A DNA stretch of 64,000 nt from an uncultured candidate division Zixibacteria bacterium. GTDB lineage: Bacteria; Zixibacteria; MSB-5A5; GN15; FEB-12. Location: contig CAWDXE010000001.1 in the NCBI GenBank assembly GCA_963806185.1, forward strand, positions 1-64,000, given 5' to 3'. Every line of letters begins with the position of its first letter. Position 1 is the first letter of the stretch. A program made the translations under genes and the position numbers. Under the pieces are notes generated by a model. That model was not told where the DNA came from. It did no database searches and was given only the letters and a program-made list of their open reading frames with translations. Shown one piece after another: positions 6,856 through 49,316 of the stretch.

Positions 6856-6891
6856 TTGACAAGCAGACCGATTTTGTTATCTTTTTCACAA
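6856..6891 (+). promoter_or_regulatory. sigma70-type promoter with an overlapping Rex/CRP-like operator
   Basis: TTGACA (6856)-16 nt-TATCTT (6878). TTGTTAT-CTTT-TTCACAA at 6874-6891 resembles TTGTGAA-N4-TTCACAA. The same arrangement recurs at 17735-17770. Confidence 0.7.
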
Positions 6892-6935: not shown

Positions 6936-7514
6936 ATGAAGCTCCGGCACGTTTTCTCAGTGACGTTGGCTATCCTTTTAATATTGAACGGGTTACTGTT
7001 TGGTCAGGCGATGGACTCCGCAAAAGCGGCGGCCCATATGAACATGATGGGGGCTCACCCGGGCTCAGATGCGAAACCACCCGATTCGTCCAAAATCCGC
7101 AGTTTCATGTCCGACGGAACCGACACTCTTTTTGCTCCCGAGGATTTCATCGTGGTTGAAACCCATCACCAGCTGTACCCCGATTTTCTTCAGATCGACA
7201 CGGTGAAGTTTCACCAGCGCTTTCAACTTGGCGAGGAGAATATCTACGCCGAAGCGTTTCGATTTGTCCCGGACCTTAAGATTACGATGAAGGGTGAGAA
7301 GATCAAGACGTCGGATACATTATATAACCCGGCAGTGCAACTCCGGGTATTTGTCGTCGATACGACAACGCAGAAGGATTCTCTGGTACAAGAGAGCTGG
7401 GCGTTCTCAGTTGGGGGTTCGCCCCACTTCTCCCGTCACTCCTTTTTCGCCTTTTCGCTGAAGAACTACCAAGTCGCTAATCCCAAGTACATTAAGCCGA
7501 CCGAAGGAAAGTAG
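6936..7514 (+). CDS. Exported protein, DUF2155/ResB-periplasmic-like, first gene of the cytochrome operon
   Basis: Signal peptide. The FVPDLKI..S..YNPAVQL..WAF..PHF pattern recalls DUF2155 proteins found beside multiheme cytochrome clusters. Confidence 0.55.
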   Translation: MKLRHVFSVTLAILLILNGLLFGQAMDSAKAAAHMNMMGAHPGSDAKPPDSSKIRSFMSDGTDTLFAPEDFIVVETHHQLYPDFLQIDTVKFHQRFQLGEENIYAEAFRFVPDLKITMKGEKIKTSDTLYNPAVQLRVFVVDTTTQKDSLVQESWAFSVGGSPHFSRHSFFAFSLKNYQVANPKYIKPTEGK

Positions 7515-7523
7515 CAACGGATC

Positions 7524-10500
7524 ATGCGCACCTTCACCTTGCTCCCCGCCATTCGCCGAGTCATCATAATTCTTGGCTTGCTCACTCTTGCTGTTCCGGC
7601 TTACGCCGCCAAACAATGCCTCGATTGCCACAAGAAAGCGCAAGCGGAGTTCTTCGCAAAGAAGATCGTCCACGATCCGGTGAAGCAGCAGAATTGCGAA
7701 TCGTGCCATAAGCGGCACGGCTTTGCCAACAAGTTGGTCCTGACCGACAATACGTCAGAACTCTGCTACACGTGTCATAAGGATTTGAAGGCACAGTTTT
7801 CCGGCGGCAAGGTACACTTCCCGGTGGAAAAGGGAGCCTGCTGGGATTGCCACGACCCTCACTCATCGGACAAAAAGGGGCTGATTCGCAAGGGACCTGA
7901 GGACGCCGATGATCCGGGTGGCTGTTTAAGCTGCCACAAGGACGATATCCAGGCGTTCGGTGCGGCCAAGTTCAGGCATACGCCGTACGAAAAGCAAGAC
8001 TGCCTCGTCTGCCACAATCCGCACAATAGCACCGAAGCCGGTTTACTGCGAAGCGAAGCCGCCACGCTTTGCGCCACCTGCCACAAGCCGGACGACAAGA
8101 AGACGCTTGCCGCTCACGAAGGCAAGTTCATTGCCGGACTTAAGTGTTCGGATTGTCACACCGGTCACTCGACTGACAAAAAGGGATTGCTCTCCTCCAA
8201 CACGCACACACCGTTTGCTGAAGGAAGCTGCGATGGGTGTCATGCTCTGCCCGACGCTGAAGGGAAGATTTCGTTTGCCGAAGGAGTGACGGCCGGAAAT
8301 GTCTGCGCCAATTGCCACGCCGATCAAGCCGACGGGCCCAATCAACCGTTTCCGCATCCTGCGGTGGAAGCAGACAACTGCGACAACTGCCACCAGCCGC
8401 ATTCATCCACTTATGGAAAACTGCTCAAGGATGAAGAAGGAAAGATGTGCCGGGAGTGTCACGCGGACATTGGCGCTGACACCACGCAACTGGTTCACGT
8501 TCCGGTGGTCTTAAACGAGTGCAGTTCGTGCCACGAAGTACACGGCTCGAAAGTCGAGCATCTTCTGAAAAAGACCGGCAGTGAACTCTGCCTGGGCTGT
8601 CACACCGAGTACACCGCGCTGCGCGATTCCGCCAAGTCGGTCCATGCCGGGGCTGAGGACTGCCTGCAGTGTCACGATCCACATCAGGGGAAAACCGGGC
8701 CGCTGCTCAAGGCTCCGCCCGCTGAACTCTGCAGCACCTGTCACGAGCCGGAGAAAACGGCGGTGACGGCCAAGTCGAGTCATTCGCCGTATCTCGATGG
8801 CGATTGTGCTGCCTGTCACTCGCCGCATTTTTCCAAATCGGAGCATCTGATCCGCGTCGACGGTTCGAAGCTCTGCCTCGCCTGTCACCCGCAAATCGAA
8901 TTGCGCATCAATGCGAGCACGCCGCATCCACCGGCGACGGAAGATTGTCGCACCTGTCATACGCCGCACTTCTCGGACCAGCCAAAGCTCATGGTCTCCA
9001 ACCCGAAAGAGATGTGCACGAGTTGTCATGACCTGAAGGATCTCGGAGCGAGCGGCAGCCATGTGCACACGCCCGTAGCCGACGGCGACTGCACGGGATG
9101 CCACGATCCTCATGGTGCGGACGCAAAGAAATTGCTGTCCGGGCGGGCAAAGCCGTTGACGGTGGGCGGCGTGACGATACTCCGCAGTCCGAAAATCGGC
9201 GAGAAGCGCGCCGACCTCTGTTACACCTGCCACGAAACCCTCGAAGACAAATTCAAAGCTGGCAAAATGCATGCGCCGGTGGCCACCGGCGATTGTGACG
9301 CCTGCCATGCGTCGCACGGTTCCGATAACCCTGGATTCATTAAAGACACGCCCGCAAAATTGTGCGGTAATTGCCATGCGCCGGATCAGGCGCTGACAGC
9401 CAAGCACTCCGGCTACGACCTGACTACGGCCGACTGTACCGATTGTCACAACCCGCATTCGTCGACCAAGGAAAAGCTCCTGCGGACCAATGACCACCCG
9501 CCGTTTGCCGACAAAGCCTGTGACAATTGCCATACGGTCGGTCCCGATGGTAAACCACAACTTTCGGCGACATTATCAGAGGTGTGTGCATCCTGCCACG
9601 ACATGGTCGCCACCGAAAACGCCAAAGCAGTTCACCACGCCCCCTTCGAGGGCGGTCAATGCACCGATTGCCACAGTGCGCACGCGTCAGATTACACCCA
9701 CTTGTTGCGCTCCGACGGCAACGATCTGTGCCTCAAGTGTCATACCGATATCAAAGACCTTCAACATTCGCCGGTCCAGCACAAACCATTTGCCACCGGC
9801 AAGTGCCTGGACTGTCACGCTCCTCATGCGTCACAATACCCCAAACTCACGACGAAGCCGGCCGAGAGTTTCTGTCTGAGCTGCCACACGCAACTGAAAG
9901 AAGACATGGGTAAGGGGGTCGTGCACACGCCGGCCAAGAACGGCAAATGTCTCGAATGTCATCTCCCCCACGCCGGCGCGAATGCCTCGCTTCTCGTCTC
10001 AGAAAGAAGCCAACTTTGCGCTCGCTGTCACAATCTAAACAGCCCCGTGCTGACCGCGGCACATCACGGCTTTGATATGACCAATGTCAATTGCCAGAGC
10101 TGCCACGCCGCACATGTCGGACAAAAGGGGAGCAAAGGGCTTCTGTTACCGAAAACGCACCAGCCGTTCCTTTCGCGCGACTGCAGCCAGTGCCACGAGG
10201 CCACGGGCAAGCATGCCTTGAAAGCTCCCGGTAAAGAGCTCTGTCTGACCTGTCATAAACAATTCCAACACAGTATGACCAAGGCTGTGGCGCACCCGCC
10301 GATCACCGACGACAACGGTTGTGTCAAATGCCATTCGCCGCACGTGGGATTCACGAAGAATCTGCTCATCAAGGACGGGGCGGCCACCTGTTTGACGTGC
10401 CACGCGGATAGAGAATTCACCGGCTCGGTGAAACATAAGATCGCGTACGACGATTGCGGCAATTGCCATCAGCCGCATTCAGCGGACTATAAGTCGCTGT

Positions 10501-10721
10501 TGAGCACACCGGACATTATGGCGCTATGCCTCCAGTGTCACAAGGATGCCACCAAAACACACTACCACCCGATGACAAAGGAAATCATCGACCCACGCAC
10601 CAAAAAGCCGATCAACTGCGTGAGTTGCCATTCGCCGCATTCCTCCGATTTTGAGTCTATCCTGGTGGGCGACAAAAACCGTAAGCTGTGCGTGAGTTGT
10701 CACGATGTCAGCCAACACTGA
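7524..10721 (+). CDS. Giant exported multiheme cytochrome c, 42 CxxCH motifs (paired/doubled CxxCH repeat family)
   Basis: Signal peptide ending AVPAYA. 42 CxxCH counted by hand in 1065 aa, in repeating H.P....CxxCH.PH.S....LL......CxxCH units. Confidence 0.95.
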   Translation: MRTFTLLPAIRRVIIILGLLTLAVPAYAAKQCLDCHKKAQAEFFAKKIVHDPVKQQNCESCHKRHGFANKLVLTDNTSELCYTCHKDLKAQFSGGKVHFPVEKGACWDCHDPHSSDKKGLIRKGPEDADDPGGCLSCHKDDIQAFGAAKFRHTPYEKQDCLVCHNPHNSTEAGLLRSEAATLCATCHKPDDKKTLAAHEGKFIAGLKCSDCHTGHSTDKKGLLSSNTHTPFAEGSCDGCHALPDAEGKISFAEGVTAGNVCANCHADQADGPNQPFPHPAVEADNCDNCHQPHSSTYGKLLKDEEGKMCRECHADIGADTTQLVHVPVVLNECSSCHEVHGSKVEHLLKKTGSELCLGCHTEYTALRDSAKSVHAGAEDCLQCHDPHQGKTGPLLKAPPAELCSTCHEPEKTAVTAKSSHSPYLDGDCAACHSPHFSKSEHLIRVDGSKLCLACHPQIELRINASTPHPPATEDCRTCHTPHFSDQPKLMVSNPKEMCTSCHDLKDLGASGSHVHTPVADGDCTGCHDPHGADAKKLLSGRAKPLTVGGVTILRSPKIGEKRADLCYTCHETLEDKFKAGKMHAPVATGDCDACHASHGSDNPGFIKDTPAKLCGNCHAPDQALTAKHSGYDLTTADCTDCHNPHSSTKEKLLRTNDHPPFADKACDNCHTVGPDGKPQLSATLSEVCASCHDMVATENAKAVHHAPFEGGQCTDCHSAHASDYTHLLRSDGNDLCLKCHTDIKDLQHSPVQHKPFATGKCLDCHAPHASQYPKLTTKPAESFCLSCHTQLKEDMGKGVVHTPAKNGKCLECHLPHAGANASLLVSERSQLCARCHNLNSPVLTAAHHGFDMTNVNCQSCHAAHVGQKGSKGLLLPKTHQPFLSRDCSQCHEATGKHALKAPGKELCLTCHKQFQHSMTKAVAHPPITDDNGCVKCHSPHVGFTKNLLIKDGAATCLTCHADREFTGSVKHKIAYDDCGNCHQPHSADYKSLLSTPDIMALCLQCHKDATKTHYHPMTKEIIDPRTKKPINCVSCHSPHSSDFESILVGDKNRKLCVSCHDVSQH

Positions 10722-10729
10722 GACCGAGA

Positions 10730-11629
10730 GTGGTGGTGAAGAGAATACTGATCCCGTGCCTTATGGCGCTCGCCTCTTTGTCTTTCCGGATCGACCTGTC
10801 CGGCCAGACGATCGATCGGATTATCGAATTGACGGCCGGCGGTCAGCGGCTTGTTCGTCCAGTGCAATTGGCCCTCTCGCCTTCCGGCAGCAGTCTGGCC
10901 GTTTGCGACCAGAACGCCAATCGCATCTTCGTGCTCGATCCGGACGGCACCCTGCTCTGGACGATCGGTGAATCGGGTTCGATCGGCCAACCGGCGGCAG
11001 TCTGTTTTGACGGCGAGGACGCCGTCCTGTTCGCTCTCAAGAGTCAGCGCCTGATCTTCCGGACTACCAAGGCAGAACCGACCAAAATTGATACCATCGC
11101 CGATCTGGCGGCAGTGCTCCCGAAGGGGGCGACGGTCGATCAATTGATCGGCATCGCCGGCAATAAGCATCTCATCCTCGATCGCCACGGTTGTGCGATC
11201 TATCGCCTGAAGGCTAACTGGGAACTGGACAGGAAATTGATTTCACACGGTGATCGCAAAGGTGAGCTGTGGGCGCCGGCGGCAATGGCGGTTGATCTCT
11301 CCGGCGATATCATCGTCGCCGATGAGGGCACCTATCCTGTCCAGACGTTTTCGTCTGACGGGAGGTTTCTCTTTGTCGGCTCGTGGAATGCTCCGCAGTC
11401 GAAGCAGATCTGGAGCGCCGGTGCCGTCGCGGTGTCAAGGGATGAGACGGTATGGGTCGCCGACGTAGCAGGGTCACAGTGGCGCGTATTTGATCGCAGC
11501 GGGAATGAACTGGGCCAATACCGGTTTACCCCGCCGATTTTCCGTCCCAACGCCATGATAATTACTCCGGATAATCGATTGGTCGTCGCCGAAGAACGCG
11601 GTTCGGTGGTTGTGCTTCGCCTTCCGTGA
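10730..11629 (+). CDS. NHL-repeat beta-propeller protein
   Basis: Repeats such as P.QLALSP..LAVCDQ.ANRI and WAPAAMAVDLSGDIIVAD. Hydrophobic N-terminus. GTG start at 10730-10736 (exact start uncertain). Confidence 0.85.
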   Translation: MVVKRILIPCLMALASLSFRIDLSGQTIDRIIELTAGGQRLVRPVQLALSPSGSSLAVCDQNANRIFVLDPDGTLLWTIGESGSIGQPAAVCFDGEDAVLFALKSQRLIFRTTKAEPTKIDTIADLAAVLPKGATVDQLIGIAGNKHLILDRHGCAIYRLKANWELDRKLISHGDRKGELWAPAAMAVDLSGDIIVADEGTYPVQTFSSDGRFLFVGSWNAPQSKQIWSAGAVAVSRDETVWVADVAGSQWRVFDRSGNELGQYRFTPPIFRPNAMIITPDNRLVVAEERGSVVVLRLP

Positions 11630-11635
11630 AAGTGA

Positions 11636-12607
11636 GTGAGGACAGTGAGACTACGCAATATCATCTGCACGTTTGGGTTGCTTTTGCCGGCGACGGTGAC
11701 GGCGGGAGACTATCATGTGCCCGGTACGCTGCAGTGCGGTGACTGTCACCTCCAGCATGGCACCGACCCACAGAATCCGGCCTTTGCCGGGCCGTTCACT
11801 TATCTTCTGAAAAAGAACTCCGTCAACGAACTATGCTTGTCTTGTCACGATGGCACGGACGCCGCGGCGCCGGACGTTCAGGACCCGGTCGTGATGTACA
11901 ATTCGACATCGGCACAGGAAAGCGGCGCCGGATTTATCGTCCCGGCAGGCCTGGATAATCCGAACGGACATGCTCTCGGCCTGCCAATGACGACTCCCCT
12001 GCAAGGCGCAAGTAGCCTCAGTGAACTAAACTGCACCAGTTGTCACGCGCCGCACGGCAATGGGAACTATCGCAATCTGAATCAGGATCCGGCCGGTACC
12101 GGCGTGACGATAAGCGTGATCGAGGGAGTTCAGGTCTTTACCCAGATCAAACCGGACATCCCTCCGTCGTCCAATACTTCGGTGATCGCGTATAGCCGGG
12201 ATAATATTGGGTATGCCCGAGGTCTCTCCACCTGGTGCGTTGCCTGCCACGATCAATTATCCGCGAATAATACGGCGGCCTTGCCGGCCCATTTCAATAC
12301 GCACCCCAGTGATATTCCGCTCAACGAGTTCGGGATTTCCGCGCATACCGACGGCGCCCATTGGACGTCGGGCGCGGGAGAAGGATTCGCGGCCGGCGGC
12401 GGTCTGGCCGGCGGACCCCGAGTACCATTTCAGGTACCCAACGCCGACGATTTCATTTCTGCACGGGAGGCGAAGTCGACCAATGAAGTGTCCTGCGTGA
12501 GCTGCCACAAGGCCCACGGCTCCAGTTATCGAAAAGGGCTGATCTGGCCGTACCTGGAAGGGGGCGATGCTTACCTCTCAGGATGCCAGCAGTGTCACAA
12601 CAAGTAG
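11636..12607 (+). CDS. OmcS-like hexaheme cytochrome c (nanowire family), copy 1
   Basis: 6 CxxCH with OmcS-type context: DYH..CGDCHLQH, YLL..CLSCH, GH, CTSCHAPHG.YR, GLSTWCVACH, THP, VPF, VSCVSCHKAHGS, terminal CQQCHNK. Confidence 0.85.
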   Translation: MRTVRLRNIICTFGLLLPATVTAGDYHVPGTLQCGDCHLQHGTDPQNPAFAGPFTYLLKKNSVNELCLSCHDGTDAAAPDVQDPVVMYNSTSAQESGAGFIVPAGLDNPNGHALGLPMTTPLQGASSLSELNCTSCHAPHGNGNYRNLNQDPAGTGVTISVIEGVQVFTQIKPDIPPSSNTSVIAYSRDNIGYARGLSTWCVACHDQLSANNTAALPAHFNTHPSDIPLNEFGISAHTDGAHWTSGAGEGFAAGGGLAGGPRVPFQVPNADDFISAREAKSTNEVSCVSCHKAHGSSYRKGLIWPYLEGGDAYLSGCQQCHNK

Positions 12608-12619
12608 GAAAGTGAACGT

Positions 12620-13720
12620 ATGCGGCGACGGACAATGGTGAGAAATCTGGCGATTGGCACACTGCCGATACTGATTGTGTTCAGTGCCGCGCTCCTGCAG
12701 GCGGACGGCGGCCAATATCGGCAATCGCCTCACGGTTCGCCGAATTCCGGCGTGTTGCGCAGCAGTGCGTATCCGCGCGCGAGCTGTGTGCAGTGCCACA
12801 CCACTCATGAACCAACCAATACCTACCCCTTTGGACTGTTTCGGGAGAATTCCAACGAGCTGTGCATGACGGCGTCTGAGGGAGGGTGCCATGCCGATCA
12901 GCCTACTGGTGCGACGGCGGGTTACCCGGCCCAGGAATCGGACCGAATGCCACAAGGCTCGAGTGATCCCGGATATTTTGAATACAGCGGAGGCGGAGTC
13001 AGAATCGCCGGCCTTAATAATCAGGTGCGCTGGCCGGGGCAGCAGGTTTGGGCCGACCTTCAATACTCACCTCACAATTCCGATCCTGACATGCCGATCA
13101 AAGACGCATTCGGCAATGGCTCATGTGACAACTGCCACGCCGTCCACGGCGGCGCGTCGCTTCATGATATGCTCGATACCACGTATGGCGGCATTGTTGG
13201 TTCGCAGAACGGCCTTCAGACGGACAACTACCGACTCTGTCTCTCCTGTCACAATCAAACCGGGCCGCTCGGCATGATCGACAGTTCTCGCTACATCGCC
13301 GATTACTACGACCGATCCATCAATCCGAGCAACCGCAGCGGTCATGGCATTTCTTCGTCCGGAGGATATGTAAACGCCGGTGACCGTCTCCCCTGTTACG
13401 ACTGTCATAACCCGCACGGCTCACAGGGGAACGGACGACAGGGCGCCAATCGGTATCTGCTCAGCGACCAGCGCCCCGGATGGTATGGGTTGACCGATAT
13501 CAAGACCGATACTGCGCAGGTACGACGCTTCTGTTTTGGCTGCCACAAATCGTCGGACGGCCTGGGGGGCGGCGTGGTAGAGGGACTGACTCTGTCCCCA
13601 CTGCCGGGCGACGTGCCCGATCACACATATGGGGCCACCACGCACTGCTATGATTGCCACGGCCGTGACTATAGTTCGTCTACCGCCAATAATGTTCACA
13701 ACCCGGCCGAAGGTGACTGA
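12620..13720 (+). CDS. Exported multiheme cytochrome c, 6 CxxCH plus one CX7CH
   Basis: CVQCH, CDNCH, CLSCH, CYDCH, CFGCH, CYDCH plus CMTASEGGCH; signal peptide. Confidence 0.88.
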   Translation: MRRRTMVRNLAIGTLPILIVFSAALLQADGGQYRQSPHGSPNSGVLRSSAYPRASCVQCHTTHEPTNTYPFGLFRENSNELCMTASEGGCHADQPTGATAGYPAQESDRMPQGSSDPGYFEYSGGGVRIAGLNNQVRWPGQQVWADLQYSPHNSDPDMPIKDAFGNGSCDNCHAVHGGASLHDMLDTTYGGIVGSQNGLQTDNYRLCLSCHNQTGPLGMIDSSRYIADYYDRSINPSNRSGHGISSSGGYVNAGDRLPCYDCHNPHGSQGNGRQGANRYLLSDQRPGWYGLTDIKTDTAQVRRFCFGCHKSSDGLGGGVVEGLTLSPLPGDVPDHTYGATTHCYDCHGRDYSSSTANNVHNPAEGD

Positions 13721-13722
13721 TA

Positions 13723-15477
13723 ATGAGATGGCTGACTCCCATATGCGTCGTCTTGGTAGTTGGCCAGTTCTACAGTACCTGTGAGGCTACGGGCAGGTTC
13801 TACGGAACGCTAAACGCGACCTATCAGCATACGACGAGGGAAAACACTTCCCGCGTGGTAACCGACACCACCGGTGATTCGCTGCGAACGACGGAGACGA
13901 CGTCGAAATACGGCCAGTCGGAGTTGCTGATCAACTATGAAGACGTTTTGTTCTCCAAGAACTACCTTCGACTGGCGAGCAGCATTTACGGCCGACAAGT
14001 GAACGACGCAGGTAGATGGGAAGTCCGATCCATCTACTATCTCGACCTCAAGAGCACCGGGTATGCGTATAGCAGCAGCTACTCCCCGTACAGCCAGACA
14101 TTTCAACTCCGACTGCCCGATGGTACGCTGGCGACCTCGAAATTGTTCTACCGAGATTGGCGAAACACCATAAATCTCAATTACAGCCGGTGGCCTACGC
14201 TGAATATTACCTACAACTTTGGGAAATCGTTTGATAAACTAGACGTGCGGCGACTCGACACCCGCAACCGCAACGTCATTCTGGAATCGAATTATGCGCT
14301 TGGCCCGGTTGCGGTGCGGGGCAATTACACACAGTCGAGATCAGAAAACCGTCTGGTCTCACCCCGAAACATCACCTCGTTTCGGACGATGAACGGGACC
14401 ACGAGTTTCGCGCAGGACTTCCCTCGCCTGGGATATCTTTCGGCCACATACTCTTTGTTGGATTCGAGGATGCAGACGCAATCAATCGAGACCGTCGTTC
14501 CGTTGCAGTCAAAAGTGCATTCGGTGACCGGATTCTATAACACGCGGTCGTATCATGGCGTGTCGGGCTCGGCCGGTTATTCCGGGCGGTTCACCAGATC
14601 GCGCACACCGCAGGACAAGTTCACCAACCGGGATGAGAGCTTTTCGGGACAGATCGGCTACGCGCCGTTCAGCTTCCTGTCGTTTGACGTCACCAAGATA
14701 TACCAGATCGCTTCGCGCGTCGGCGGACACCGAATCTCCGAGTATCTGACCGTATCTTCGACCGTCAACCGTTACCTGCGTCGAGGGGTGGATACACGAT
14801 TCAGCTGGGCGAGAACGTTCTACCAGCAAGTCGAGGGAAGCGAAGATTCCACGACTACGCGGGGCGGCGGCTACAGCACCGACAGTTATTATGCATCACT
14901 GGCGGCCGTCCCCTACCCGCATACCCGCCTGTTATGTGATCTTTCGATTGCACGCTCCAATGCACCCGAGACTACAGCGCGCCGGTATTTGATTACACGA
15001 TCTTTGAACCTGCTCTTAAATGCATCGCGGAAACTGGAGGGGCGGCTGGGCGCGTCCTTCTCTTATCAGGGGCCGGAATTCACCTTGAATCGAAGCTACT
15101 CGCGCAATGTCAACGCGGGTGCCTCGTACTTCCCGGGCGGAAATATCAATATGAATCTGACCTACGTACGGTCCGTCCTGAATTCTACACCCAGACTCGC
15201 CAACAGCTCACTCAACACGTATATCGGGTATACCTTTCGACAAGTGCTCACCCTCTACCTGAGCCTCAACCGACAGCTTCAGGAAATACCGGAACAAACG
15301 GAGGGCGGCATTGAGAGAGCAACCGTGAAGCCGTATACCGTCAACGCCCAGGCACAGTTACGCTTAACCGCGCGATCCACGTTCACGCTTGGTTACATAC
15401 ATACTGACGGCTCGTCCACAGCCGGACCGTCCAACAAGTCCGGTATCCTCCAGGCGGTTTACAACGGACAATTCTAA
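13723..15477 (+). CDS. Outer-membrane beta-barrel protein (porin-cytochrome conduit or secretion pore candidate)
   Basis: Signal peptide, alternating amphipathic Tyr/Ser/Asn-rich strands, C-terminal aromatic (..VYNGQF); lies inside the cytochrome operon. Confidence 0.75.
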   Translation: MRWLTPICVVLVVGQFYSTCEATGRFYGTLNATYQHTTRENTSRVVTDTTGDSLRTTETTSKYGQSELLINYEDVLFSKNYLRLASSIYGRQVNDAGRWEVRSIYYLDLKSTGYAYSSSYSPYSQTFQLRLPDGTLATSKLFYRDWRNTINLNYSRWPTLNITYNFGKSFDKLDVRRLDTRNRNVILESNYALGPVAVRGNYTQSRSENRLVSPRNITSFRTMNGTTSFAQDFPRLGYLSATYSLLDSRMQTQSIETVVPLQSKVHSVTGFYNTRSYHGVSGSAGYSGRFTRSRTPQDKFTNRDESFSGQIGYAPFSFLSFDVTKIYQIASRVGGHRISEYLTVSSTVNRYLRRGVDTRFSWARTFYQQVEGSEDSTTTRGGGYSTDSYYASLAAVPYPHTRLLCDLSIARSNAPETTARRYLITRSLNLLLNASRKLEGRLGASFSYQGPEFTLNRSYSRNVNAGASYFPGGNINMNLTYVRSVLNSTPRLANSSLNTYIGYTFRQVLTLYLSLNRQLQEIPEQTEGGIERATVKPYTVNAQAQLRLTARSTFTLGYIHTDGSSTAGPSNKSGILQAVYNGQF

Positions 15478-15493
15478 CTATAGGATAGATGCT

Positions 15494-16081
15494 ATGTCGT
15501 ATTACTCGAAACTCCTCCTCATCCCCCTGCTGGCGCTGACGCTGGTTTCCTGTGGGGGGTATCGCCAGTATCTGAACGAGGAGGCCGATTTTGGCTATTA
15601 TCAACGAATCGGCATTCTCCCCTTCTCCAATCTGAGCAATGACAAAGCCGCCTCAGAAAAGGTAACAGCCAGCTTTCTGACCGAGATGATGATCGGCGGC
15701 AGCGTTGAGATCGCCACCATGGGTGATCTGCTGACCACCTATCGAACCGTCATCAAGGACGAACGTTTCAACCTCCCGGAGCAACTGACGGCCGAAGAAG
15801 CGATGGCGATCGGCAAAGGGGCCGAGATTCAGGGCCTGATAGTCGGCGCCGTGCGCGATTACGGCATGGTGCGTTCCGGCCAGACGGATTTCCCGCTGGT
15901 CTCCTTGGTCGTGAGGTTCATTGATTGTCAGTCCGGCAAGATAATCTGGAGCTACGAAATCACGCGCAAAGGCGGGCCGAAATTCCCGATCTTCTCGTTT
16001 GGCGAGACGCATACGCTGGGCGACCTGACGACCAAAGTGTGCCGCAAGACAGCGCAATCGCTTATAGGGACACTCAAATGA
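15494..16081 (+). CDS. CsgG/HfaB/GNA1162-like lipoprotein
   Basis: Lipobox LVSC; RIGILPFSNLS; LIVGAV.DY; VRFIDCQSGKIIW. Confidence 0.78.
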   Translation: MSYYSKLLLIPLLALTLVSCGGYRQYLNEEADFGYYQRIGILPFSNLSNDKAASEKVTASFLTEMMIGGSVEIATMGDLLTTYRTVIKDERFNLPEQLTAEEAMAIGKGAEIQGLIVGAVRDYGMVRSGQTDFPLVSLVVRFIDCQSGKIIWSYEITRKGGPKFPIFSFGETHTLGDLTTKVCRKTAQSLIGTLK

Positions 16082-16683
16082 CAAGGTCAGAAGCTCTCTT
16101 CCGTAGCTGGGGTCTGCTGCCGGCGCTAACTTTGATCATCGCCCTGTCGACAGGCTGCGGCGGCCACTATCTGACCAGGAAGGCGCACGACGCTGCCTTT
16201 ACCGCTGAGCCGCGCATCGCCGTACTGCCGTTCGACAACTTCACGAACAAAGATCAGGTAGCAGCGAAAGTAACCGAGTATTTCCAGACCCTCATGACCA
16301 ACCGGCCGCCGTTTGTCATCGTCGAGGCCGGCACAACGTTCGAATCACTGCGCCGACATCGCATCAGATCGTCAATCCTGCTGAGCGAAGCACAGATGGA
16401 TACCCTGGCCCTGGAACTGGGCATTCAGTACGTGCTTACCGGATCGGTGTTCGAATACAGCGAGGTTGACAACACCTATCTGGGAAAGATACCGCAGATT
16501 TCGTTCGACGCCCGATTGGTGGATTGTCGCTCCAAGAAGACGGTTTGGACCGGCGTCTCAAATGACAGTGGTGATCGTAAGGAATTGCTCTTCGGGATCG
16601 GCGTGACAAGATCGGCCGACGAGCTGGCCCGCAAGATGGCCGAGACACTCGTGAGTGATCTGCAGGGAGTATTCCAGAAGTAA
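16078..16683 (+). CDS. CsgG/HfaB/GNA1162-like lipoprotein, paralog
   Basis: Lipobox STGC; RIAVLPFDNFT; VLTGSVFEY; ARLVDCRSKKTVW. ATG overlaps the upstream stop. Confidence 0.78.
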   Translation: MTRSEALFRSWGLLPALTLIIALSTGCGGHYLTRKAHDAAFTAEPRIAVLPFDNFTNKDQVAAKVTEYFQTLMTNRPPFVIVEAGTTFESLRRHRIRSSILLSEAQMDTLALELGIQYVLTGSVFEYSEVDNTYLGKIPQISFDARLVDCRSKKTVWTGVSNDSGDRKELLFGIGVTRSADELARKMAETLVSDLQGVFQK

Positions 16684-17657
16684 TGAGAATGATAGCGTTA
16701 CATTCTCATCTATTCGGACTAGTCTGCGGCATTCTGCTTGTCGCGTCGACATTGACCGGTCAAGCTTTGACCGGCGAGGCTGAGTTCACGGCGCTCACCT
16801 ACGACAATGGCGCCGACGGTTCTCTGATTTCACCCGGTCAGGCCTTCTTTGACCGAACGGCCAACGAATTGTTTGTCGCCTCACCGGGGAACAATCGCAT
16901 TATTGTGTACGCTCCCGACCTCACTCCCAAATACTCGTTTCCCCATTACGTAACCGATCCCCGCACCAAGGAACAGAAATTCGGCGAACCTAAGGCGGTC
17001 GTGGTGAACAGCCAAGGTGATCTGCTGATTGTCGATAATCTGGCGGACTATCTTGACGTCCTCGATTTTCGCGGCAAGCCGTTGACTCGCATCTATCCCA
17101 ATCGGCTGCTGAAGGACACGACCCTGCGGGTAAAGGCCGACCTGGTAGCGATGGACGAACGCGGTAATGTGTATCTATCCGTCACCGGCGACATCCAGTC
17201 GATCTTGGTCCTTGACCAGTTTCTGGAATTGAAGCGACAAATCGTCAAAAAGGGCGATCCGGACGCTGTTTCGCTCCCGTTGTCAATGGCGGTCGAAGAC
17301 AGCCTGCTTATTATCAGTGACCTTCGCGGCATTCCTGTGATCCGGGTATATGATACACTGGGACAGTATTTGTTTGGTTTTGGCGGTCGCGAGATTGAGA
17401 GATCGGATTTCTCGTTGCCCATCGCCATCTCCATGATGGCAGATTCAAGCGGGCAGCGATATTTCCTCGTGGCCGACGCACTCCGACAAGTCATTAAGTT
17501 CTTGGATTTCACGGGCAAACAGATTTCGAACATCGGCGGGTACGGCATTGCCGCTGGTGCCTTTCGGTATCCGTCGGGCTTAACATTCGACGGAAATAGG
17601 ACGTTTTATGTCGTCGAAAGGGTCTCCGCCCGCATCCAGAAATTCGAACTTCACTGA
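16683..17657 (+). CDS. NHL-repeat beta-propeller protein
   Basis: Repeats PKAVVVNSQGDLLIVD and FRYPSGLTFDG..FYVVE..RIQKF; signal peptide. Confidence 0.85.
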   Translation: MRMIALHSHLFGLVCGILLVASTLTGQALTGEAEFTALTYDNGADGSLISPGQAFFDRTANELFVASPGNNRIIVYAPDLTPKYSFPHYVTDPRTKEQKFGEPKAVVVNSQGDLLIVDNLADYLDVLDFRGKPLTRIYPNRLLKDTTLRVKADLVAMDERGNVYLSVTGDIQSILVLDQFLELKRQIVKKGDPDAVSLPLSMAVEDSLLIISDLRGIPVIRVYDTLGQYLFGFGGREIERSDFSLPIAISMMADSSGQRYFLVADALRQVIKFLDFTGKQISNIGGYGIAAGAFRYPSGLTFDGNRTFYVVERVSARIQKFELH

Positions 17658-17734
17658 TCTTGTATTCCATTATCTCTAAGTTTACCAACAAGTTAATTGC
17701 GCATAAAAAATGCAGATATTATCGCAATTAATCC

Positions 17735-17770
17735 TTGACAAAATCGAGGTATTTGCTATCTTTTTCACAA
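17735..17770 (+). promoter_or_regulatory. sigma70-type promoter with an overlapping Rex/CRP-like operator, driving OmcS-like copy 2
   Basis: TTGACA (17735)-16 nt-TATCTT (17757). TTGCTAT-CTTT-TTCACAA at 17753-17770. Confidence 0.7.
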
Positions 17771-17850
17771 ACCGGAGTGAAATGGAACAGAATCTATTGA
17801 GTTCCTGTTTCGGACGGCCGGTTCAGAATGTTGAGTTTGCAAATGCGTGT

Positions 17851-17868
17851 TAGTGAAAAGAATCACAA
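17851..17868 (+). promoter_or_regulatory. Additional Rex/CRP-like palindromic site in the long leader
   Basis: TAGTGAA-AAGA-ATCACAA, 2 mismatches to TTGTGAA-N4-TTCACAA. Confidence 0.55.
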
Positions 17869-18085
17869 GGCCTACGGGGCTGGCAGGTTTCTCTCGTTGG
17901 CTTCCGCGGCCAATCATCTCCCCTATTCTCGCAATCAAATCACTAATAATAAACAACTTAACCGATCAAGATTCTCTTTTGAGACGATGAAAGGAGGCTT
18001 GGGACAGAGCGACTCTTCTGATTGTACGTATTCGGAAAAGAAACCAACAATTCGAATTGGTATGGTAACAACTAAGGAATCAAAC

Positions 18086-19176
18086 ATGAAGAAACTCATT
18101 TTCCTCGGTCTTGCCGTGATAGCATTGCTTGCCGCTACTGCTATGGCCGGCGACTACCACAAAGGTGCGGATCTGGTCTGCAACGAATGCCACGTCATGC
18201 ACTACAGCCAATCCCACGACTACGCGGGCGACCCGCATCAGGCTCCTCTGGCCAACGGCCCGAACGAGTACCTGCTTCGCAACAAGGTCAACGAACTCTG
18301 TCTGTCATGTCATGATGGAAGCTCGCATGTTCCGGACGTTCTTGGTGAGAACGCTGGTACGGCGGTCCGTCTGGCCGGCGCCCTGAATAAGGAAGACGGT
18401 TCAGTGACCGGCTACACGCCGCAATCCGGCCACTCGCTGGGTTATGCCCAGGCGACCTATCCGGGCAAGGGCACTGCGACCTTCACGCCGAATGCGACTG
18501 AAGGTTTGGAATGCACCGACTGCCACGGCCCGCACGGCAGCCAGACTGGCTATCGCAACCTGAGCAAGGCCACTATCACGTATGCTATCGGAACCAACGA
18601 TGCTACGAAGGACGTGTTTGAGCGCAGCGCGGCCCACCAGTACGCCGGTGGCGACAACCACTACGACCTGAGCAACGTTGATTACAACGAGCCGAACGGT
18701 ACCGGCTCGAAGTATGCTGATATGTGCAAGGCTTGCCATGCTGATTTCCACGGCGCCCTTGGTGGCACGGAAATCGGTGGTCGTGGCCAACTACCAGCGG
18801 CCTGTATGAAGAGTTCCATCGTCACCCGGCGTCCGACGTCAACATCGGCGCTCTGGGCGGCGGCCACTCGGCCATGCGTCGCGCGGCCAGCGGCAGCACC
18901 CCGATTGATCGCGGCTTCGCCATGAAAGCCTACCGCGTGAAAGTCCTGAGCACCAGTGGTGCCTGGGGCGACCAGGGTACCCCGTTGTATCCGCCGGCGA
19001 GCGGCACGCTCCCGACCGACTTGACGCCGAGCTGCATGTCGTGCCACAAGTCGCACGGCAACCAGAATCCGTTTGGTCTGATCTATGCTACCGGCAGTGC
19101 TCCGATCGGCGAAAATGGCGACGGCTCGTTTGCTGATCTTTGCAAGCAGTGCCATATCCAGGGCTACGTCTACTAA
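18086..19176 (+). CDS. OmcS-like hexaheme cytochrome c, copy 2 (one apparent frameshift near 18780)
   Basis: AAGGA SD, then MKKLIFLGLAVIALLAATAMA-GDYH..CNECHVMH, CLSCH, CTDCHGPHG..YRNL, CKACH. After the frame change: EEFHRHPA..PSCMSCHKSHG..CKQCH. Confidence 0.85.
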
Positions 19177-19204
19177 GATTACGCCCGCTTGGTGCTAATA
19201 AATG

Positions 19205-19230
19205 GTAGGGGAGGCAATTTGCCTCCCTAC
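19205..19230 (+). terminator. Stem-loop after OmcS-like copy 2 (weak terminator or mRNA stabiliser)
   Basis: GTAGGG(G)AGGCA-ATT-TGCCTCCCTAC with a poor U-tract. Confidence 0.55.
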
Positions 19231-19270
19231 TTGCGTTGGAAGCAATCTCGGACCGAGGGGAATTTCGGGT

Positions 19271-20396
19271 ATGAAAGCAATCCTCAGCGTTGTTCTCCTG
19301 CTATTGATCGCGACGGCGGCGCTCGCCGGCGACCCGACTGATGTCAGGGGACGACTCGGTTTCATTCATCCGGGCGGTGGAATCCGGGATCAATCCGGAA
19401 TGCCCAGGCAATGCGGCGGCTGCATTTGACCTGGCCCAGTATCATACGGCTCGAGCCTCTATTGTTCGCAGTGCCACGTGATGCACGCCAGCGAGACGCA
19501 TGCAGTGTCCACAACCGTTCCTGATCCATTCGGACCGTTTCCGCGCACGTTCACACCGACCAAGTATCTTCTCAAAGCCTCCGATCCGGTCACGCTTTGC
19601 CTGACCTGTCACGACAATCAGGCGGGAATTCCGGATGTCGTCGGCGCCGACGTGAATGGTCTGTCTGATCGCTCAGCAGGTCGCTTTGAGGCGGTTGGGA
19701 TCGACAATCCGACTGGCCATAAACTGGCGTTGGGCGATCGGACCGGAGTCCGGCGGCTGGGAACTTTGCTTACGTTGCCATATGGCGCGGCGGAGTTCGC
19801 ACGGCGGCCGTCACCTGCATCGACTGTCACAATCCGCATGGCAACGATCGTGTCGCGCAATCTGCAGTGGGCAAGCGATCCGGCGGAACGAGCGTCCGTT
19901 TGGCATGTACATCCGGCCCGGCAGCGCCGGGATGTCTCGCTATGAAACGGACAATATCGGCTTTCCGTCGCCGACGTTGAACGAATTCCGCGAGGTTTCC
20001 AATATGTGCAAGGACTGCCATCACGTCTTGTCGGGACAAATGTATGTCGACTCGATGACAATGGCATACACGAGAAGCACCCGTCATACGATTCCGAATT
20101 TGGGTCCAACGGCACGAATACGATCTCCCAGGGCGATGCGCACGGTTCGACGTCGTCCGCTCATTGGGTTGACGGTACGGGTGGTGGCTTTGTTAATACG
20201 CCGCGACTGCGTTATCTGGTCCGAGGTGCGACGACTTTGCGCATCGCGAACCGTCTCCGCAGATAACGGCGTGTTCTGTCTGACCTGCCACAAGGCACAC
20301 GGCAGTGATCGTTCCTTCTCCCTGACCTTTGCTCCTTCCGGAGAACAGGGCGGCGGTGAAGGATGCGACCAATGCCACAATATGACGGGACTCTAG
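19271..20396 (+). pseudogene. OmcS-like cytochrome, copy 3, 7 CxxCH, broken by about 8 frame switches (probably sequencing error)
   Basis: Signal MKAILSVVLLLLIATAALA. Motifs read across frames: QYH..YCSQCHVMH, YLL..CLTCH, GHKL, CLRCH, CIDCHNPHG, RNL, CKDCH, KHPS, CLTCHKAHGS, CDQCH. Confidence 0.8.
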
Positions 20397-20479
20397 GCCG
20401 CAAGTCCAGAGCACGAGCAACTTACGATTTCGAAGGAGAGCACCGAGAAGTGTTCTCCTTATTTTTTGTGGTTAAGAAA

Positions 20480-21262
20480 TCAATCGAATTGGTGGCAGGC
20501 GCGACACAGTTCATTGCGATCGCTGAACCCGGCGAGATGAAACTGTGTCTGTGCCGATAGCGAGTGACAGGTCTGGCACTCGATCTTCCCCTCGAAGAGC
20601 TGCACGCGAGCATCAACTATCGGTTTGATCCGAGAACCTTCGTTAGGAGCCGAGGTGACCATAGTCACGCCGGTAGGATGAGTGTGGCGACCGTCAAATT
20701 GCGGTATCTCTCCATAGCCGTCCAGGTTCTGCCGGCTCCGCTCTGAGTGACAGAGCAGGCATGCCTCCGATGGAGACAATCCTCCTGAACCCACGAGCTC
20801 GGAATGGAATAGCCGCGCGGCCGCCTTATGGCCGGGTGAAAGAGCCAGCAGATCCTGCCCTAATCCATGACACGAGGCACAGATGGACTCGAGTTGAGGA
20901 CGTCTGGCAGCTATCTGGAACTCTCTTCCGGCGGCGTAGATTGAATCGGGCCGGTGAAAAAAGTGGCAGTCACTGCAGGCTCGAGAGAGGTCTTCGTGAA
21001 AGGTGAGCAGACTGGTACGCTGCAAGACCTGCGCCGTGTGGCACTCGCGACACTGCGCGTCGATGACCGGAATGGACGTCGGGGCGTTGAGATCGGCCAG
21101 GAGCGGGTGACAGCGGGAGCAGTCGATCCCCTTATGGCTCTGAGGCAATACGGGCGCGCGAGGTATGTCGTCGCTTCCGCCCGGAAAATAGCCGAGCATC
21201 GAAGCCAGAATGACCACTGTCCAAACGGCCATCCACTCAGTTTTTTTCAGGAATCTTCCCAT
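20480..21262 (-). CDS. Heptaheme cytochrome c with N-terminal hydrophobic anchor or signal
   Basis: CSRCH, CRECH, CSDCH, CASCH, CLLCH, CQTCH, CRACH. Confidence 0.9.
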   Translation of the reverse strand: MGRFLKKTEWMAVWTVVILASMLGYFPGGSDDIPRAPVLPQSHKGIDCSRCHPLLADLNAPTSIPVIDAQCRECHTAQVLQRTSLLTFHEDLSRACSDCHFFHRPDSIYAAGREFQIAARRPQLESICASCHGLGQDLLALSPGHKAAARLFHSELVGSGGLSPSEACLLCHSERSRQNLDGYGEIPQFDGRHTHPTGVTMVTSAPNEGSRIKPIVDARVQLFEGKIECQTCHSLSAQTQFHLAGFSDRNELCRACHQFD

Positions 21263-23187: not shown

Positions 23188-24594
23188 TCAGTCTGGATCA
23201 TAGGCGTCGAGTAGATTGAGTCCGGAAGCCAGTACCTGGTAGTTCTCCCACACCCGGCGATTCAGCACGCGTCCGTTGGCGTCGAGAAACTCGACTTCGA
23301 GACGATGATTGCCCGGCGGGACGACAAAGTCGCCGACATATACTTGTCCCGGCAGAAACTGCGCACAACGAAGGTCAGGGTTCTCGGAAAGGTCGACGGT
23401 CACATCAACCGCTGCTTTGGCCAGCCATCCGCCAATCCCGCCCTTGTCGACTTTTGTTTTCAACTTGTGGGTTGACAGTCCCTTGGCCAGGGCGCGGGCT
23501 ACCGTACGGACGTAGATGAGCGACCGCTTGGCCTCGAAGGTTTCGACGGCAATCTTGCCGACGTCTTCCAGCAGCGATAGTTTCCCGATCTGCACTGAAT
23601 CGACGTACACTTTTATGTCAGCGACTCTTGACGGTCGTCGCGCGAGCGTGGGTATGGCAAACTTGAAGTAGTAATCCTGGCTTATCGGCAGGATGAAGTG
23701 ACCATACTCTGATTCGGCACCGTCGGTATTGGTATAGAGCACCTGAACGAGGTTCAGATCCTTGTCGGTACGGAGCCTGAGGGCCTGTGCCTCTTTGCGC
23801 GGCGCCAGGCCGCAGAGTCCGACAAAGCTGAGAATGGCTCCCGAGTCGTTCACATATTGCACCGGCGGCATGCCGAAATCATAAATATGCGGTTGCGTCT
23901 CAAACGCCTGGCGAAGAAAGTCATAGTCGATCCGGGCGTCGTCGAACTTGCCGTCGGCGGCGTACATGTGCATGCTCAGATATCGCGCCAGCGCCGAAGA
24001 GTGGAAACGGATGTTCTTTGCGTCATATGTAATGCGGACGGCTTCGCTGTCGTCAGGATTTCCGGTCTGCAATTGTTTGGCGGCTTCGCCGTATTTCTGG
24101 TTTAGCTGCTCGAGACGCAAGTTGGCCCGGCGAATCTCCACAAAGGCCTCGTCAAACTGATCCATCGCCATGTAGTTGAGCGCCTTAATCAGATTGACAT
24201 AGAGCACCTCGTGATCCTCACCGGCGTATTCCAGGACGTTGTCATTGAGCAGCAGCGAAGCTGCGGCCCGCGAAATGCTCTTTGTATACAACTCGTCGGC
24301 TGCCGCTTCGGCCAGCATAAGCCGACTGTTGCTCGAATCATAGCGCTGAGCGTAATGATTCACCATACCGGCGTCGATGAAATACAACAGCCTGTCCTTG
24401 TCGCCGAATCTGCCCTTGGTGCGAGCAACTTCCAATGAATCGATGGCAGTCGTGAATTTGCCGGCACGGAGTTCGACTGCGACCGGATCATAGAAGCCGC
24501 GGCGGGTCGCCATCGATCCGCACCCCGCAGCCATAAGAATAGCGAGCACACACCCAAGCAGGCCAAAGTGTGCTCTGAGGACGGCTGTCACCAT
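23188..24594 (-). CDS. COG3014-family lipoprotein
   Basis: Lipobox AAGC; LLLNDNVLEYAGEDHE; DLRCAQFLP; usual neighbour of LpoB. Confidence 0.75.
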   Translation of the reverse strand: MVTAVLRAHFGLLGCVLAILMAAGCGSMATRRGFYDPVAVELRAGKFTTAIDSLEVARTKGRFGDKDRLLYFIDAGMVNHYAQRYDSSNSRLMLAEAAADELYTKSISRAAASLLLNDNVLEYAGEDHEVLYVNLIKALNYMAMDQFDEAFVEIRRANLRLEQLNQKYGEAAKQLQTGNPDDSEAVRITYDAKNIRFHSSALARYLSMHMYAADGKFDDARIDYDFLRQAFETQPHIYDFGMPPVQYVNDSGAILSFVGLCGLAPRKEAQALRLRTDKDLNLVQVLYTNTDGAESEYGHFILPISQDYYFKFAIPTLARRPSRVADIKVYVDSVQIGKLSLLEDVGKIAVETFEAKRSLIYVRTVARALAKGLSTHKLKTKVDKGGIGGWLAKAAVDVTVDLSENPDLRCAQFLPGQVYVGDFVVPPGNHRLEVEFLDANGRVLNRRVWENYQVLASGLNLLDAYDPD

Positions 24595-25187
24595 TTCCGA
24601 TCGCCCTGAGAGATGCCTTTCTTGATCTTCTTGGTGCCGATCCAGACTTTTTCCATCGTCTCAATGTTGACCAGTTCGAGATCGGTCTGGTAATACATCA
24701 CCCGGTTATTGCCTTCCTGGTCGGCAATAGTCTTGACAGCCCCCTGAAGCATGAAATCGGCGCCGGTCTCCTCGCGAATCTTCTTGGCCGTCTCGCGCGA
24801 GGCAAACTCCTGTTGTTCCTGGCGTTCCTCGCGGATTTCATCGCGCTGCGGCTTGCTGGCCACAAAGCGTACCTGATTTGAATTCAGCAGCTCGCGCTCG
24901 AAATCGGTGGTAAACGTTTCGGTATTGATGTGCTCGCTCGAAAGATTCCGGATAGTACCCACCGTCACCACGGGCTTCTGCCCTTTTGATGTGCTATAGG
25001 CGGTCAGCCACGGGCGGGCCAGAGCGTCTTTGACCATGTCTTCGGCCACCAACCGTGAGTCGGTGTCGTTCCATGCGCCGCTGAGATCAGTGACGGTGTT
25101 GGGATCCAGTCGCGTGACCTTCTTGGAACTTCCGCAGCCAGCCGCTACGACAATCAACAGTACGAAAACGACGAATTGTTTGAGCAC
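24588..25187 (-). CDS. lpoB: Penicillin-binding protein activator LpoB-family lipoprotein
   Basis: Lipobox AAGC; DLSGAWNDTD; IRNLSSEHI; GADFMLQG; KVWIG.KKIKK. Confidence 0.8.
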   Translation of the reverse strand: MLKQFVVFVLLIVVAAGCGSSKKVTRLDPNTVTDLSGAWNDTDSRLVAEDMVKDALARPWLTAYSTSKGQKPVVTVGTIRNLSSEHINTETFTTDFERELLNSNQVRFVASKPQRDEIREERQEQQEFASRETAKKIREETGADFMLQGAVKTIADQEGNNRVMYYQTDLELVNIETMEKVWIGTKKIKKGISQGDRKW

Positions 25188-32426: not shown

Positions 32427-32572
32427 CCCATAGCGACACGATTAACCATCTGCCCACCAATTGGTTGCGTCGATAAGAGTCGTGTTGTAGACAGTGGATC
32501 ACTAAAGAAATAGGGGGCGCCGCCGATAGATTGGATAAGCAACTGTTCAAAAACCGAACAGTCGGAAGGATA

Positions 32573-35129: not shown

Positions 35130-35130
35130 A

Positions 35131-36243: not shown

Positions 36244-36488
36244 TCTGACTCCTCATTCTCCTCGACCGCCCGATACTCACGCCATACCTCAAGGGTGCGT
36301 TGCGCCTCGACTTCGTCGAGCAGACTAATGGCAAAGCCGGCATGCACAATGACATACTGCCCGATCTTCGCTTCGGGCACATAGACAAGGCAAGCGGTGG
36401 TGACTGTGCCGTCGAAGTCCACCCGGCCCATGGGCGCGCCGTTCTCCTCCAGCAGCTCTATCACTTTTCCAGGTATCGCCAGACACAT
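36240..36488 (-). CDS. hypC: Hydrogenase maturation chaperone HypC
   Basis: MCLAIPG start; [10 protein letters not shown]. Confidence 0.95.
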
Positions 36489-36498
36489 ACGTAGTTCT

Positions 36499-38793: not shown

Positions 38794-38799
38794 AGTGCT

Positions 38800-48797: not shown

Positions 48798-49173
48798 GTC
48801 TGCTCCTCCCCGGGAGGTGTGCGTCGCACGAGCTCACTGAATCAGCCGGATCCGTGGCAAGCCTGGCGATCTCACCCGGTTCTTGAATTAATAAGTCGAT
48901 AAGAAATTTAGTCGGGGAGTCCGAAGCCGTCGGCCTCGAACGCGAGAGTAGCGCGAACGTGTGTGTCGCTCGAACCACATTGTCTCTGCTGTGTCTCACC
49001 TCCCTTCGTCCAAGGTAGTGTGACCGCACGTCCTGCACATCGCCGGAGGGTTACTCCGTGACGCATGTCGCCCCAGCCCGTGCAGACCGACAATGCATGG
49101 CCAATTGATCTTCTGTTCTACTGCTGAACTGCCCCTGTGTGCTCCAACCGGTGGGACAACCGGCACCAAGTTA

Positions 49174-49201
49174 ACTATAGCAGCCTGGTGCGCATTGTCA
49201 A
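49174..49201 (-). promoter_or_regulatory. sigma70-type promoter about 370 nt upstream of the giant surface-protein gene
   Basis: Minus strand TTGACA-16 nt-TATAGT. Confidence 0.55.
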
Positions 49202-49316
49202 GGGAAATCTCCACTTCGATCCGTTTAGAAGCGAAAGATTGGCTCCCCGCAAGTCAGTGACAGAGGCGGCCCCGTTCCTCCCAGCGAGGACGGACCATCA
49301 GCCCGCACCGAATTGG

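Follow-up and report, generated by a model that had tools for sequence, protein, structure and literature searches.

An OmcS-like cytochrome cluster with homologues of part of an osc-type outer-membrane machinery in a Zixibacteria genome

The window analysed here, a stretch of 64,000 nucleotides (nt) of contig CAWDXE010000001.1 from an uncultured candidate division Zixibacteria bacterium (assembly GCA_963806185.1), carries a cluster of twelve genes at 6936-21262. Three of them encode cytochromes that resemble OmcS, the filament cytochrome of Geobacter, and these are referred to below as copies 1, 2, and 3. The first nine genes are on the + strand and are closely packed or overlapping. They are followed by a gap of 429 bp, then by copy 2 and copy 3, and finally by a convergent gene for a cytochrome of 260 amino acids (aa). 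The genes and the sites found around them are as follows.

6856..6883, + strand: promoter-like site preceding the first transcription unit (TTGACA, 16 nt spacer, TG-TATCTT; consensus match only)
6936..7514, + strand: secreted protein of 192 aa, first gene, from a family without assignment; the N-terminus reads like a signal peptide
7524..10721, + strand: cytochrome of 1065 aa with 42 CxxCH, likely a periplasmic haem wire (OscI-like)
10688..11629, + strand: NHL beta-propeller, 313 aa (Pfam NHL E=3e-6; NCBIfam ScyF-type NHL E=2.8e-17, below cut-off)
11636..12607, + strand: OmcS-like hexahaem cytochrome copy 1, 323 aa, 6 CxxCH, intact; candidate filament subunit
12620..13720, + strand: cytochrome of 366 aa with 6 CxxCH and a conserved Cx7CH; N-terminal half related to the OmcS-like family
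13723..15477, + strand: predicted 28-strand outer-membrane beta-barrel, 584 aa
15494..16081, + strand: lipoprotein g7, 195 aa, lipobox LVSC, OscF-like, PelC/CsgG/LpoB superfamily
16078..16683, + strand: lipoprotein g8, 201 aa, lipobox STGC, paralogue of g7, OscF/OscG-like (Pfam LpoB E=0.0059)
16683..17657, + strand: NHL beta-propeller, 324 aa, closes the first unit (Pfam NHL E=3e-7)
17735..17762, + strand: promoter-like site upstream of copy 2 (hexamers and spacing as at 6856; consensus match only)
18086..19176, + strand: OmcS-like hexahaem cytochrome copy 2, 4+2 CxxCH, with one frameshift near 18771
19271..20396, + strand: OmcS-like heptahaem cytochrome copy 3, with eight frameshifts by frameshift-aware alignment to an intact orthologue
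20433..20460, + strand: terminator-like hairpin between copy 3 and the convergent gene (11-pair stem, then a T run; consensus match only)
20480..21262, - strand: 7-haem cytochrome, 260 aa, 7 CxxCH, with an N-terminal hydrophobic anchor or signal and Pfam c3/c7-type matches

All genes named in an earlier note on this DNA were present where it had placed them. Its count of about 74 CxxCH motifs also agrees with ours, which is 72 in the open reading frames (ORFs) as assembled and 74 once the frame breaks of copy 3 are bridged. Pfam supports the cytochrome assignments as well as the two NHL propellers, and the beta-barrel was recovered as a prediction. The two lipoproteins, described in the note as CsgG-like, have their lipoboxes and belong with CsgG at the level of the superfamily, with PelC as the closest solved relative. 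The two promoter-like sites have in common the 14-nt string TATCTTTTTCACAA, which suggests common control of both transcription units.

Copy 1 carries its CxxCH motifs at residues 34, 67, 133, 201, 287, and 317. When this protein alone was compared with 177,635 Protein Data Bank (PDB) sequences by phmmer, OmcS was retrieved (6ef8, E=4.2e-8), and the next PDB sequences stood at 0.03. Relatives at E<=0.001 numbered 254 in a word-indexed search and 544 in an exhaustive representative search. The profile of an alignment of 57 family sequences (A1) matched OmcS at E=1e-12 and was colinear with it over haem motifs 1-5, in two segments covering OmcS residues 1-154 and 206-341. Invariant in 57 of 57 sequences were the six CxxCH motifs and six distal histidines (His27, His41, His112, His140, His223, and His294), each of which aligns with a histidine of OmcS. 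The subunit is hexahaem like OmcS (GSU2504; PDB 6EF8/6NEF), and its six CxxCH and six distal histidines follow one another as they do there, at an identity of only about 23%. In OmcS all six haems are described as bis-His ligated, with the ligand of haem 5 supplied by the adjacent monomer (PMC7096707). Both the donor histidine of the CxxCHxxH motif (His41) and haem motif 5 are conserved in the family. PF09699 was also searched in 14 named control genomes, among which it matched in Escherichia coli only.

The earlier note had drawn its comparison from an ordered series of motifs. Because copy 1 and the A1 profile both match OmcS, and because the invariant histidines align with those of OmcS, this series is not a product of chance, and its colinearity with OmcS stands. 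Its wording was too strict for RHP, which is exact in copy 2 only (THP in copy 1, KHP in copy 3), and correct for SxWCxxCH, which is exact only in copy 1. An AlphaFold2 (AF2) model of copy 1 had a predicted local distance difference test (pLDDT) score of 79.7. OmcS was its top Foldseek match with a probability of 0.99, yet the template modelling (TM) scores were just 0.38/0.31. Sequence and predicted fold alike place the three cytochromes in the OmcS superfamily as true members, as had been proposed; formation of a conductive filament by the locus is predicted by this homology.

The other two OmcS-like genes were followed with the help of the closest named locus (L017), that of candidate division GN15 bacterium FeB_12, where both have unbroken frames: copy 2 has 360 aa and 6 haems, and copy 3 has 371 aa and 7 haems. 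Against the 360-aa orthologue, copy 2 gave two tblastn segments in different frames with 54% and 57% identity, and it keeps all six CxxCH and the distal His motifs. In copy 3 the frame changes near 19385, 19447, 19736, 19800, 19852, 19886, 20029, and 20240 relative to the L017 orthologue. A read-through restores 7 CxxCH and all distal His motifs and meets no in-frame stop. Two candidate explanations for the position of the frameshifts were dropped. None of the 9 sites has a homopolymer of at least 4 nt within 25 nt, and GATC, which occurs within 10 nt of 4 of the 9, has a background of 7-10 per kb and is not notable.

The 584-aa protein would be the outer-membrane component of the cluster. Its 28 strands were assigned by DSSP on an AF2 model (pLDDT 82.4) built from a shallow alignment of 7 sequences. 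It has no Pfam match, and its neighbours in the ESM Atlas are unnamed clusters, with an outer-membrane protein barrel cluster at 0.94. The C-terminus (...VYNGQF) reads like an outer-membrane beta-signal.

The two lipoprotein genes directly follow, the ATG of g8 overlapping the stop codon of g7 (ATGA). When 21 aligned lipoproteins of this family were scanned singly, LpoB was matched in 11, CsgG in 9 (best E=2.8e-12), and a GNA1162-like family in 7. The best solved relative of the family profile was PelC (9h80_C, E=2.2e-11); three other PelC entries came next, then GNA1162 and LpoB. The arrangement also recalls PelB/PelC, in that PelC (9H80, 5T11, 5T10, 5T0Z) is the closest solved relative and a lipoprotein gene adjoins the gene for an outer-membrane barrel. 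PelC forms a ring under the porin. Unlike in that system, the predicted cargo here is a haem protein, not a polysaccharide, and there are two paralogous lipoproteins instead of one. Another member of the same superfamily lies 3 kb from the cluster, where an LpoB-type lipoprotein (24588-25187, - strand; TIGR02722 E=9.7e-30, 104 bits against a cut-off of 110.55 bits) adjoins two unassigned proteins of 468 and 859 aa.

The largest cytochrome matched Paired_CXXCH_1 over 20 stretches (E=1.2e-199) and is 65% identical to the 42-haem orthologue of L017. The 366-aa cytochrome is the most conserved gene of the cluster, with 57-65% identity in 5 orthologues. Its residues 53-186 align with the A1 profile (hhalign probability 97%, E=9.1e-11), and no relative of it was found among PDB sequences. 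Its second haem motif, at residues of about 80-89, is stretched to Cx7CH (C-M-T-A-S-E-G-G-C-H). This form is retained in all 5 close orthologues, and the distant homologues in loci L015 and L011 have a plain CxxCH at the corresponding position. The stretched motif may be a seventh, non-canonical haem site, a type that often requires a dedicated lyase. Of the two NHL proteins, the one of 313 aa has an orthologue at the same position in L017 and in other loci, and the one of 324 aa is 60% identical to its L017 orthologue. The 192-aa protein has no match in Pfam or NCBIfam, and its gene also precedes that of the giant cytochrome in L005, L016, and L017. The 260-aa cytochrome is 43% identical to its L017 orthologue, which is placed upstream of the cluster.

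In the whole genome there are 23 ORFs with at least three CxxCH, with 232 motifs altogether. Six of these ORFs, with 69 of the motifs, are in the locus, and the shorter pieces of copies 2 and 3 bring the locus to 72. The genome also has three Cytochrom_C_asm matches, so that cytochrome c maturation genes are present, and three NapC/NirT-type matches, which are outside the locus. Elsewhere in the genome, adjacent ORFs at G000:C7:303430-307589 contain 20 and 31 CxxCH, and a group of ORFs at C7:705498-710301 contains 13, 8, and 11.

Named relatives of copy 1 come from Candidatus Zixiibacteriota, the Fibrobacterota-Chlorobiota-Bacteroidota (FCB) group and, further out, Armatimonadota. In L017, where copy 1 is 56% identical, every gene of the locus is found in the same order, except for the 7-haem gene. 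The L017 genome is in the same GTDB family as the host. NCBI lists GN15 as its own candidate phylum; GTDB places it inside Zixibacteria. The host is therefore outside Geobacterales and outside Desulfobacterota, as the Zixibacteria-like placement made earlier from the sequence had implied. Within the host phylum, a family match at E<=1e-20 was found in 95 of 285 genomes (72 of the 198 of high quality), and a copy 1 orthologue at E<=1e-127 in 36 of the 285, the host genome included.

The single copy 1 protein, used as a query for related loci, found no relative; a scan based on the A1 alignment fetched 76 loci, of which 46 carry at least two of the 12 query genes. Core synteny, defined as copy 1, the 366-aa cytochrome, the barrel, both lipoproteins, and an NHL gene, was seen in six (L005, L006, L007, L009, L016, and L017). 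Eight more (L010-L014, L018, L020, and L023) have partial synteny, with a copy-1-like gene, a lipoprotein, and other matches and no match to the barrel. These are labelled Acidobacteriota/Thermoanaerobaculia, Nitrospirae, Armatimonadetes, Krumholzibacteriia, or unclassified. A quick maximum likelihood tree, midpoint-rooted, was made from 60 rows (73 hits less two duplicates, three weak hits, and eight 5-haem rows). In this tree copies 1, 2, and 3 fall into three separate clades, each of several phyla, which suggests that the paralogues are old, have been kept together, and are not orthologues of OmcS. Distant OmcS-family matches of partial length (24-32% identity) also occur in Neobacillus/Bacillus loci (L026, L028, L033-L036, L038, and L044), where they adjoin NHL-like matches in Gram-positive hosts without an outer membrane.

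The closest described counterpart of the neighbourhood is the osc region of G. sulfurreducens. It is described as containing omcS, omcT, and the OmcS-like oscC (GSU2501), together with an eight-gene block, GSU2500-2493, that is tied to nanowire maturation and secretion (PMC12977616, PMC13194489). In the same accounts OscH is assigned to folding, OscE/F/G to secretion, and OscD to morphology; OscI is the 26-haem GSU2495 and OscJ is GSU2494 (PMC12977616, PMC13194489). Another near counterpart is the OmcE nanowire gene cluster of Desulfuromonadia (PMC13712944). The paper on it presents a porin-like mounting pathway as the present hypothesis for OmcS, reports a large barrel at most OmcE and OmcS loci, and treats the secretion and termination of filaments as open (PMC13712944).

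A reference operon was sought among 401 genomes of the phylum of Candidatus Desulfobia pelagia (G001), 53 of which matched the A1 profile at E<=1e-8. One Desulfobacterota genome (G140) has a protein that matches OmcS across the full chain (E=4.6e-98). The operon adjoining this OmcS orthologue encodes a second OmcS-like hexahaem cytochrome (447 aa), an NHL protein, a 472-aa YNCE-type propeller, a 755-aa protein, and two lipoproteins of 201 and 390 aa with GNA1162, LpoB, and CsgG matches. It also encodes a 586-aa SurA-N/peptidyl-prolyl isomerase (PPIase) protein, 26-haem and 16-haem cytochromes, and another NHL protein. This operon fits the osc description as published (PMC13194489, PMC12977616), and the labels OscF and OscG were given to its genes by their order and by what citing papers describe. 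Lipoprotein g7 matched the 201-aa lipoprotein with 94 bits and 33% identity, and g8 matched the 390-aa two-domain lipoprotein with 45 bits. The 42-haem cytochrome matched the 26-haem protein with 342 bits and 33% identity over 684 aa, a score that is inflated by the repeated haem motifs. Matches of the NHL proteins were weak (29-31 bits). The neighbourhood is homologous in part to an osc-type operon that adjoins a genuine OmcS orthologue, the sequence homology covering the two lipoproteins and the giant cytochrome. As the osc locus does, it combines several OmcS-like paralogues with a giant multihaem cytochrome, with NHL propellers, and with paired lipoproteins of the CsgG/LpoB/PelC type; a large barrel is predicted as well. 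It differs in that the giant cytochrome has 42 haems against 26, the gene order is not the same, there are two transcription units, and the host is of the Zixibacteria lineage.

We put at about 0.6 the probability that the locus encodes homologues of OmcS and of part of an osc-type outer-membrane machinery, and that its OmcS-like subunits would be exported through the barrel and lipoproteins and then polymerise outside the cell into a haem wire. Electrons would leave the quinone pool via a module encoded outside the locus, among whose genes domain scans recognised no inner-membrane quinol module, and the Sec-exported 42-haem cytochrome would take them across the periplasm. By analogy with PelB/PelC and with the reported role of OscEFG, the barrel and the two lipoproteins may act as a pore for export and anchoring. 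The OmcS-like subunits would join head to tail in the manner of OmcS, His41 of the CxxCHxxH motif in one subunit serving as ligand to haem 5 in the next, and the NHL propellers could be assembly accessories. The wire may serve either mineral reduction or electron uptake.

A number of observations weigh against this reading. In the copy 1 model, residues 21-59 have a pLDDT below 50, and this is the site of His27, haem motif 1, and His41. Mature copy 1 has about 300 aa and is about 100 residues shorter than OmcS (407 aa). For the barrel, hhalign detected no homology to the 755-aa protein at the equivalent position of the G140 operon (probability 6%). Pfam and NCBIfam scans found no Rotamase or SurA domain in any locus gene, and so no OscH-like PPIase; used as a query against the host genome, the G140 PPIase scored no better than 28.5 bits, a weak match at C1:495386, which is 480 kb from the locus. 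There is likewise no OscD-like YNCE propeller in the locus, and the 472-aa G140 query finds none in the host genome, which is 82% complete. The likeness to the omcS neighbourhood claimed in the earlier note is borne out in part, for the lipoproteins and the giant cytochrome. For want of an OscH-like PPIase, an OscD-like propeller, and a recognisable quinol module, the description of the system as self-contained is overstated. So is the description as complete, because the frames of copies 2 and 3 are broken in this assembly and a single one of the three subunit genes is intact.

Further observations of this kind favour a different arrangement, a porin-cytochrome conduit without filaments, which we regard as possible but rather unlikely. 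An MtrB-like barrel would here sheathe one cytochrome, either the 366-aa protein or an end of the 42-haem protein, and the OmcS-like proteins would be monomeric or oligomeric at the surface or in the periplasm, comparable to MtrC on MtrAB. The best Foldseek match of the barrel model in the PDB is indeed MtrB (6r2q_B, E=1.7e-10, TM 0.51/0.46), ahead of TonB-dependent receptors and LptD, and the cluster resembles MtrCAB of Shewanella (PDB 6R2Q) in that a large barrel, with a predicted fold nearest MtrB, is found beside multihaem cytochromes for electron transfer across the outer membrane. Barrels of 26-28 strands look alike whatever their cargo, however, the locus has no MtrA-like decahaem cytochrome, and the 366-aa candidate lacks a sequence relative in the PDB. 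In the tree, the family of copy 1 is in a group of 40 rows and the G140 OmcS orthologue in the other group of 20 (Shimodaira-Hasegawa-like approximate likelihood ratio test support of 93), which places copy 1 outside the OmcS clade in what is a quick tree. In Geobacter, too, OmcT, OscC, and OmcJ are reported as not known to polymerise, OmcS alone being so (PMC12977616), and FeGenie-based work reads Zixibacteria loci as porin-cytochrome operons (PMC7005843). Set against this, the family retains all six distal histidines of OmcS, and among them is the one acting in trans in OmcS. The lipoproteins are homologous to osc lipoproteins and to PelC, whose ring funnels a polymer to the porin, and MtrCAB is without such a component. 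These points keep us with export and polymerisation as the preferred reading.

The frameshifts raise another reading, in which the system is decaying in this host, copies 2 and 3 being real pseudogenes and the cluster partly functional or non-functional. The nine indels are all within 2.3 kb, one in copy 2 and eight in copy 3, compared with none across the remaining 10.7 kb of the cluster, and sites without a homopolymer of at least 4 nt in 25 nt are unlike classic long-read homopolymer errors. The Geobacter omcS region is itself reported as fast-evolving, with frameshifted members (PMC3495685, PMC13194489). Copy 1 and all accessory genes are nevertheless intact. Substitutions usually outnumber indels, and a copy 3 that retains its haem motifs, its distal His motifs, and a reading without stops would be unexpected after eight indels. 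Furthermore, the assembly consists of 8 contigs and is of typical size, but has 82% marker completeness, which suggests consensus indel errors; relatives of similar contiguity are mostly 92-99% complete, with one single-contig relative at 80%. Because the read-through of copy 3 is intact and genome completeness is low for the contiguity, we lean towards assembly error, and consider decay very unlikely.

The three paralogues might also be non-redundant and make up one heteromeric wire, with copy 1 as the major subunit and the paralogues of the second unit, including the 7-haem copy 3, as its base, anchor, or terminator. This idea, suggested by the fact that each paralogue forms a clade of several phyla and that they are kept together in syntenic clusters, is put forward as a doubtful one, by analogy with the minor pilins of chaperone-usher pili. 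If true, it would answer how cytochrome filaments are anchored, charged, and terminated.

Other features of the window lie downstream of the cluster. A hydrogenase maturation set at 34068-39483 includes a HypE-like AIR-synthase-type protein, HypD (E=4e-147), HypF (E=1e-249), and a HypB-like GTPase, which suggests a [NiFe]-hydrogenase in the host. It is preceded by a protein with a type IX secretion system (T9SS) sorting domain (32531-34063). Three very large secreted-looking proteins of 2254, 926, and 916 aa are encoded at 42033-54844. The first contains beta-helix/NosD repeats and a C-terminal FlgD-Ig domain, the second has a weak NosD-family match only, and the third has none. A pyridine nucleotide-disulphide oxidoreductase (56382-57620, - strand) matched its Pfam profile only from position 58 onward, and its N-terminus may have been cut off by another frame break of the assembly.

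The locus does not establish a new kind of system. Its novelty is lower than had been assumed, since the osc machinery is reportedly called 'widespread and ancient' in the title of Shen et al. 2025. Its interest lies in the lineage and in the parts. Zixibacteria are common in sediments and the subsurface, are uncultured, and have been suspected of iron cycling in FeGenie-based surveys (PMC8478452, PMC7005843). A conserved cluster of the OmcS/osc type would give a Zixibacteria lineage a concrete route for extracellular electron transfer. The link of the lipoproteins to PelC and the three conserved clades of paralogues are leads to its mechanism, and the slimmed machinery, with neither a PPIase nor an OscD-type propeller, would help to define the minimal parts needed for the export of cytochrome wires.

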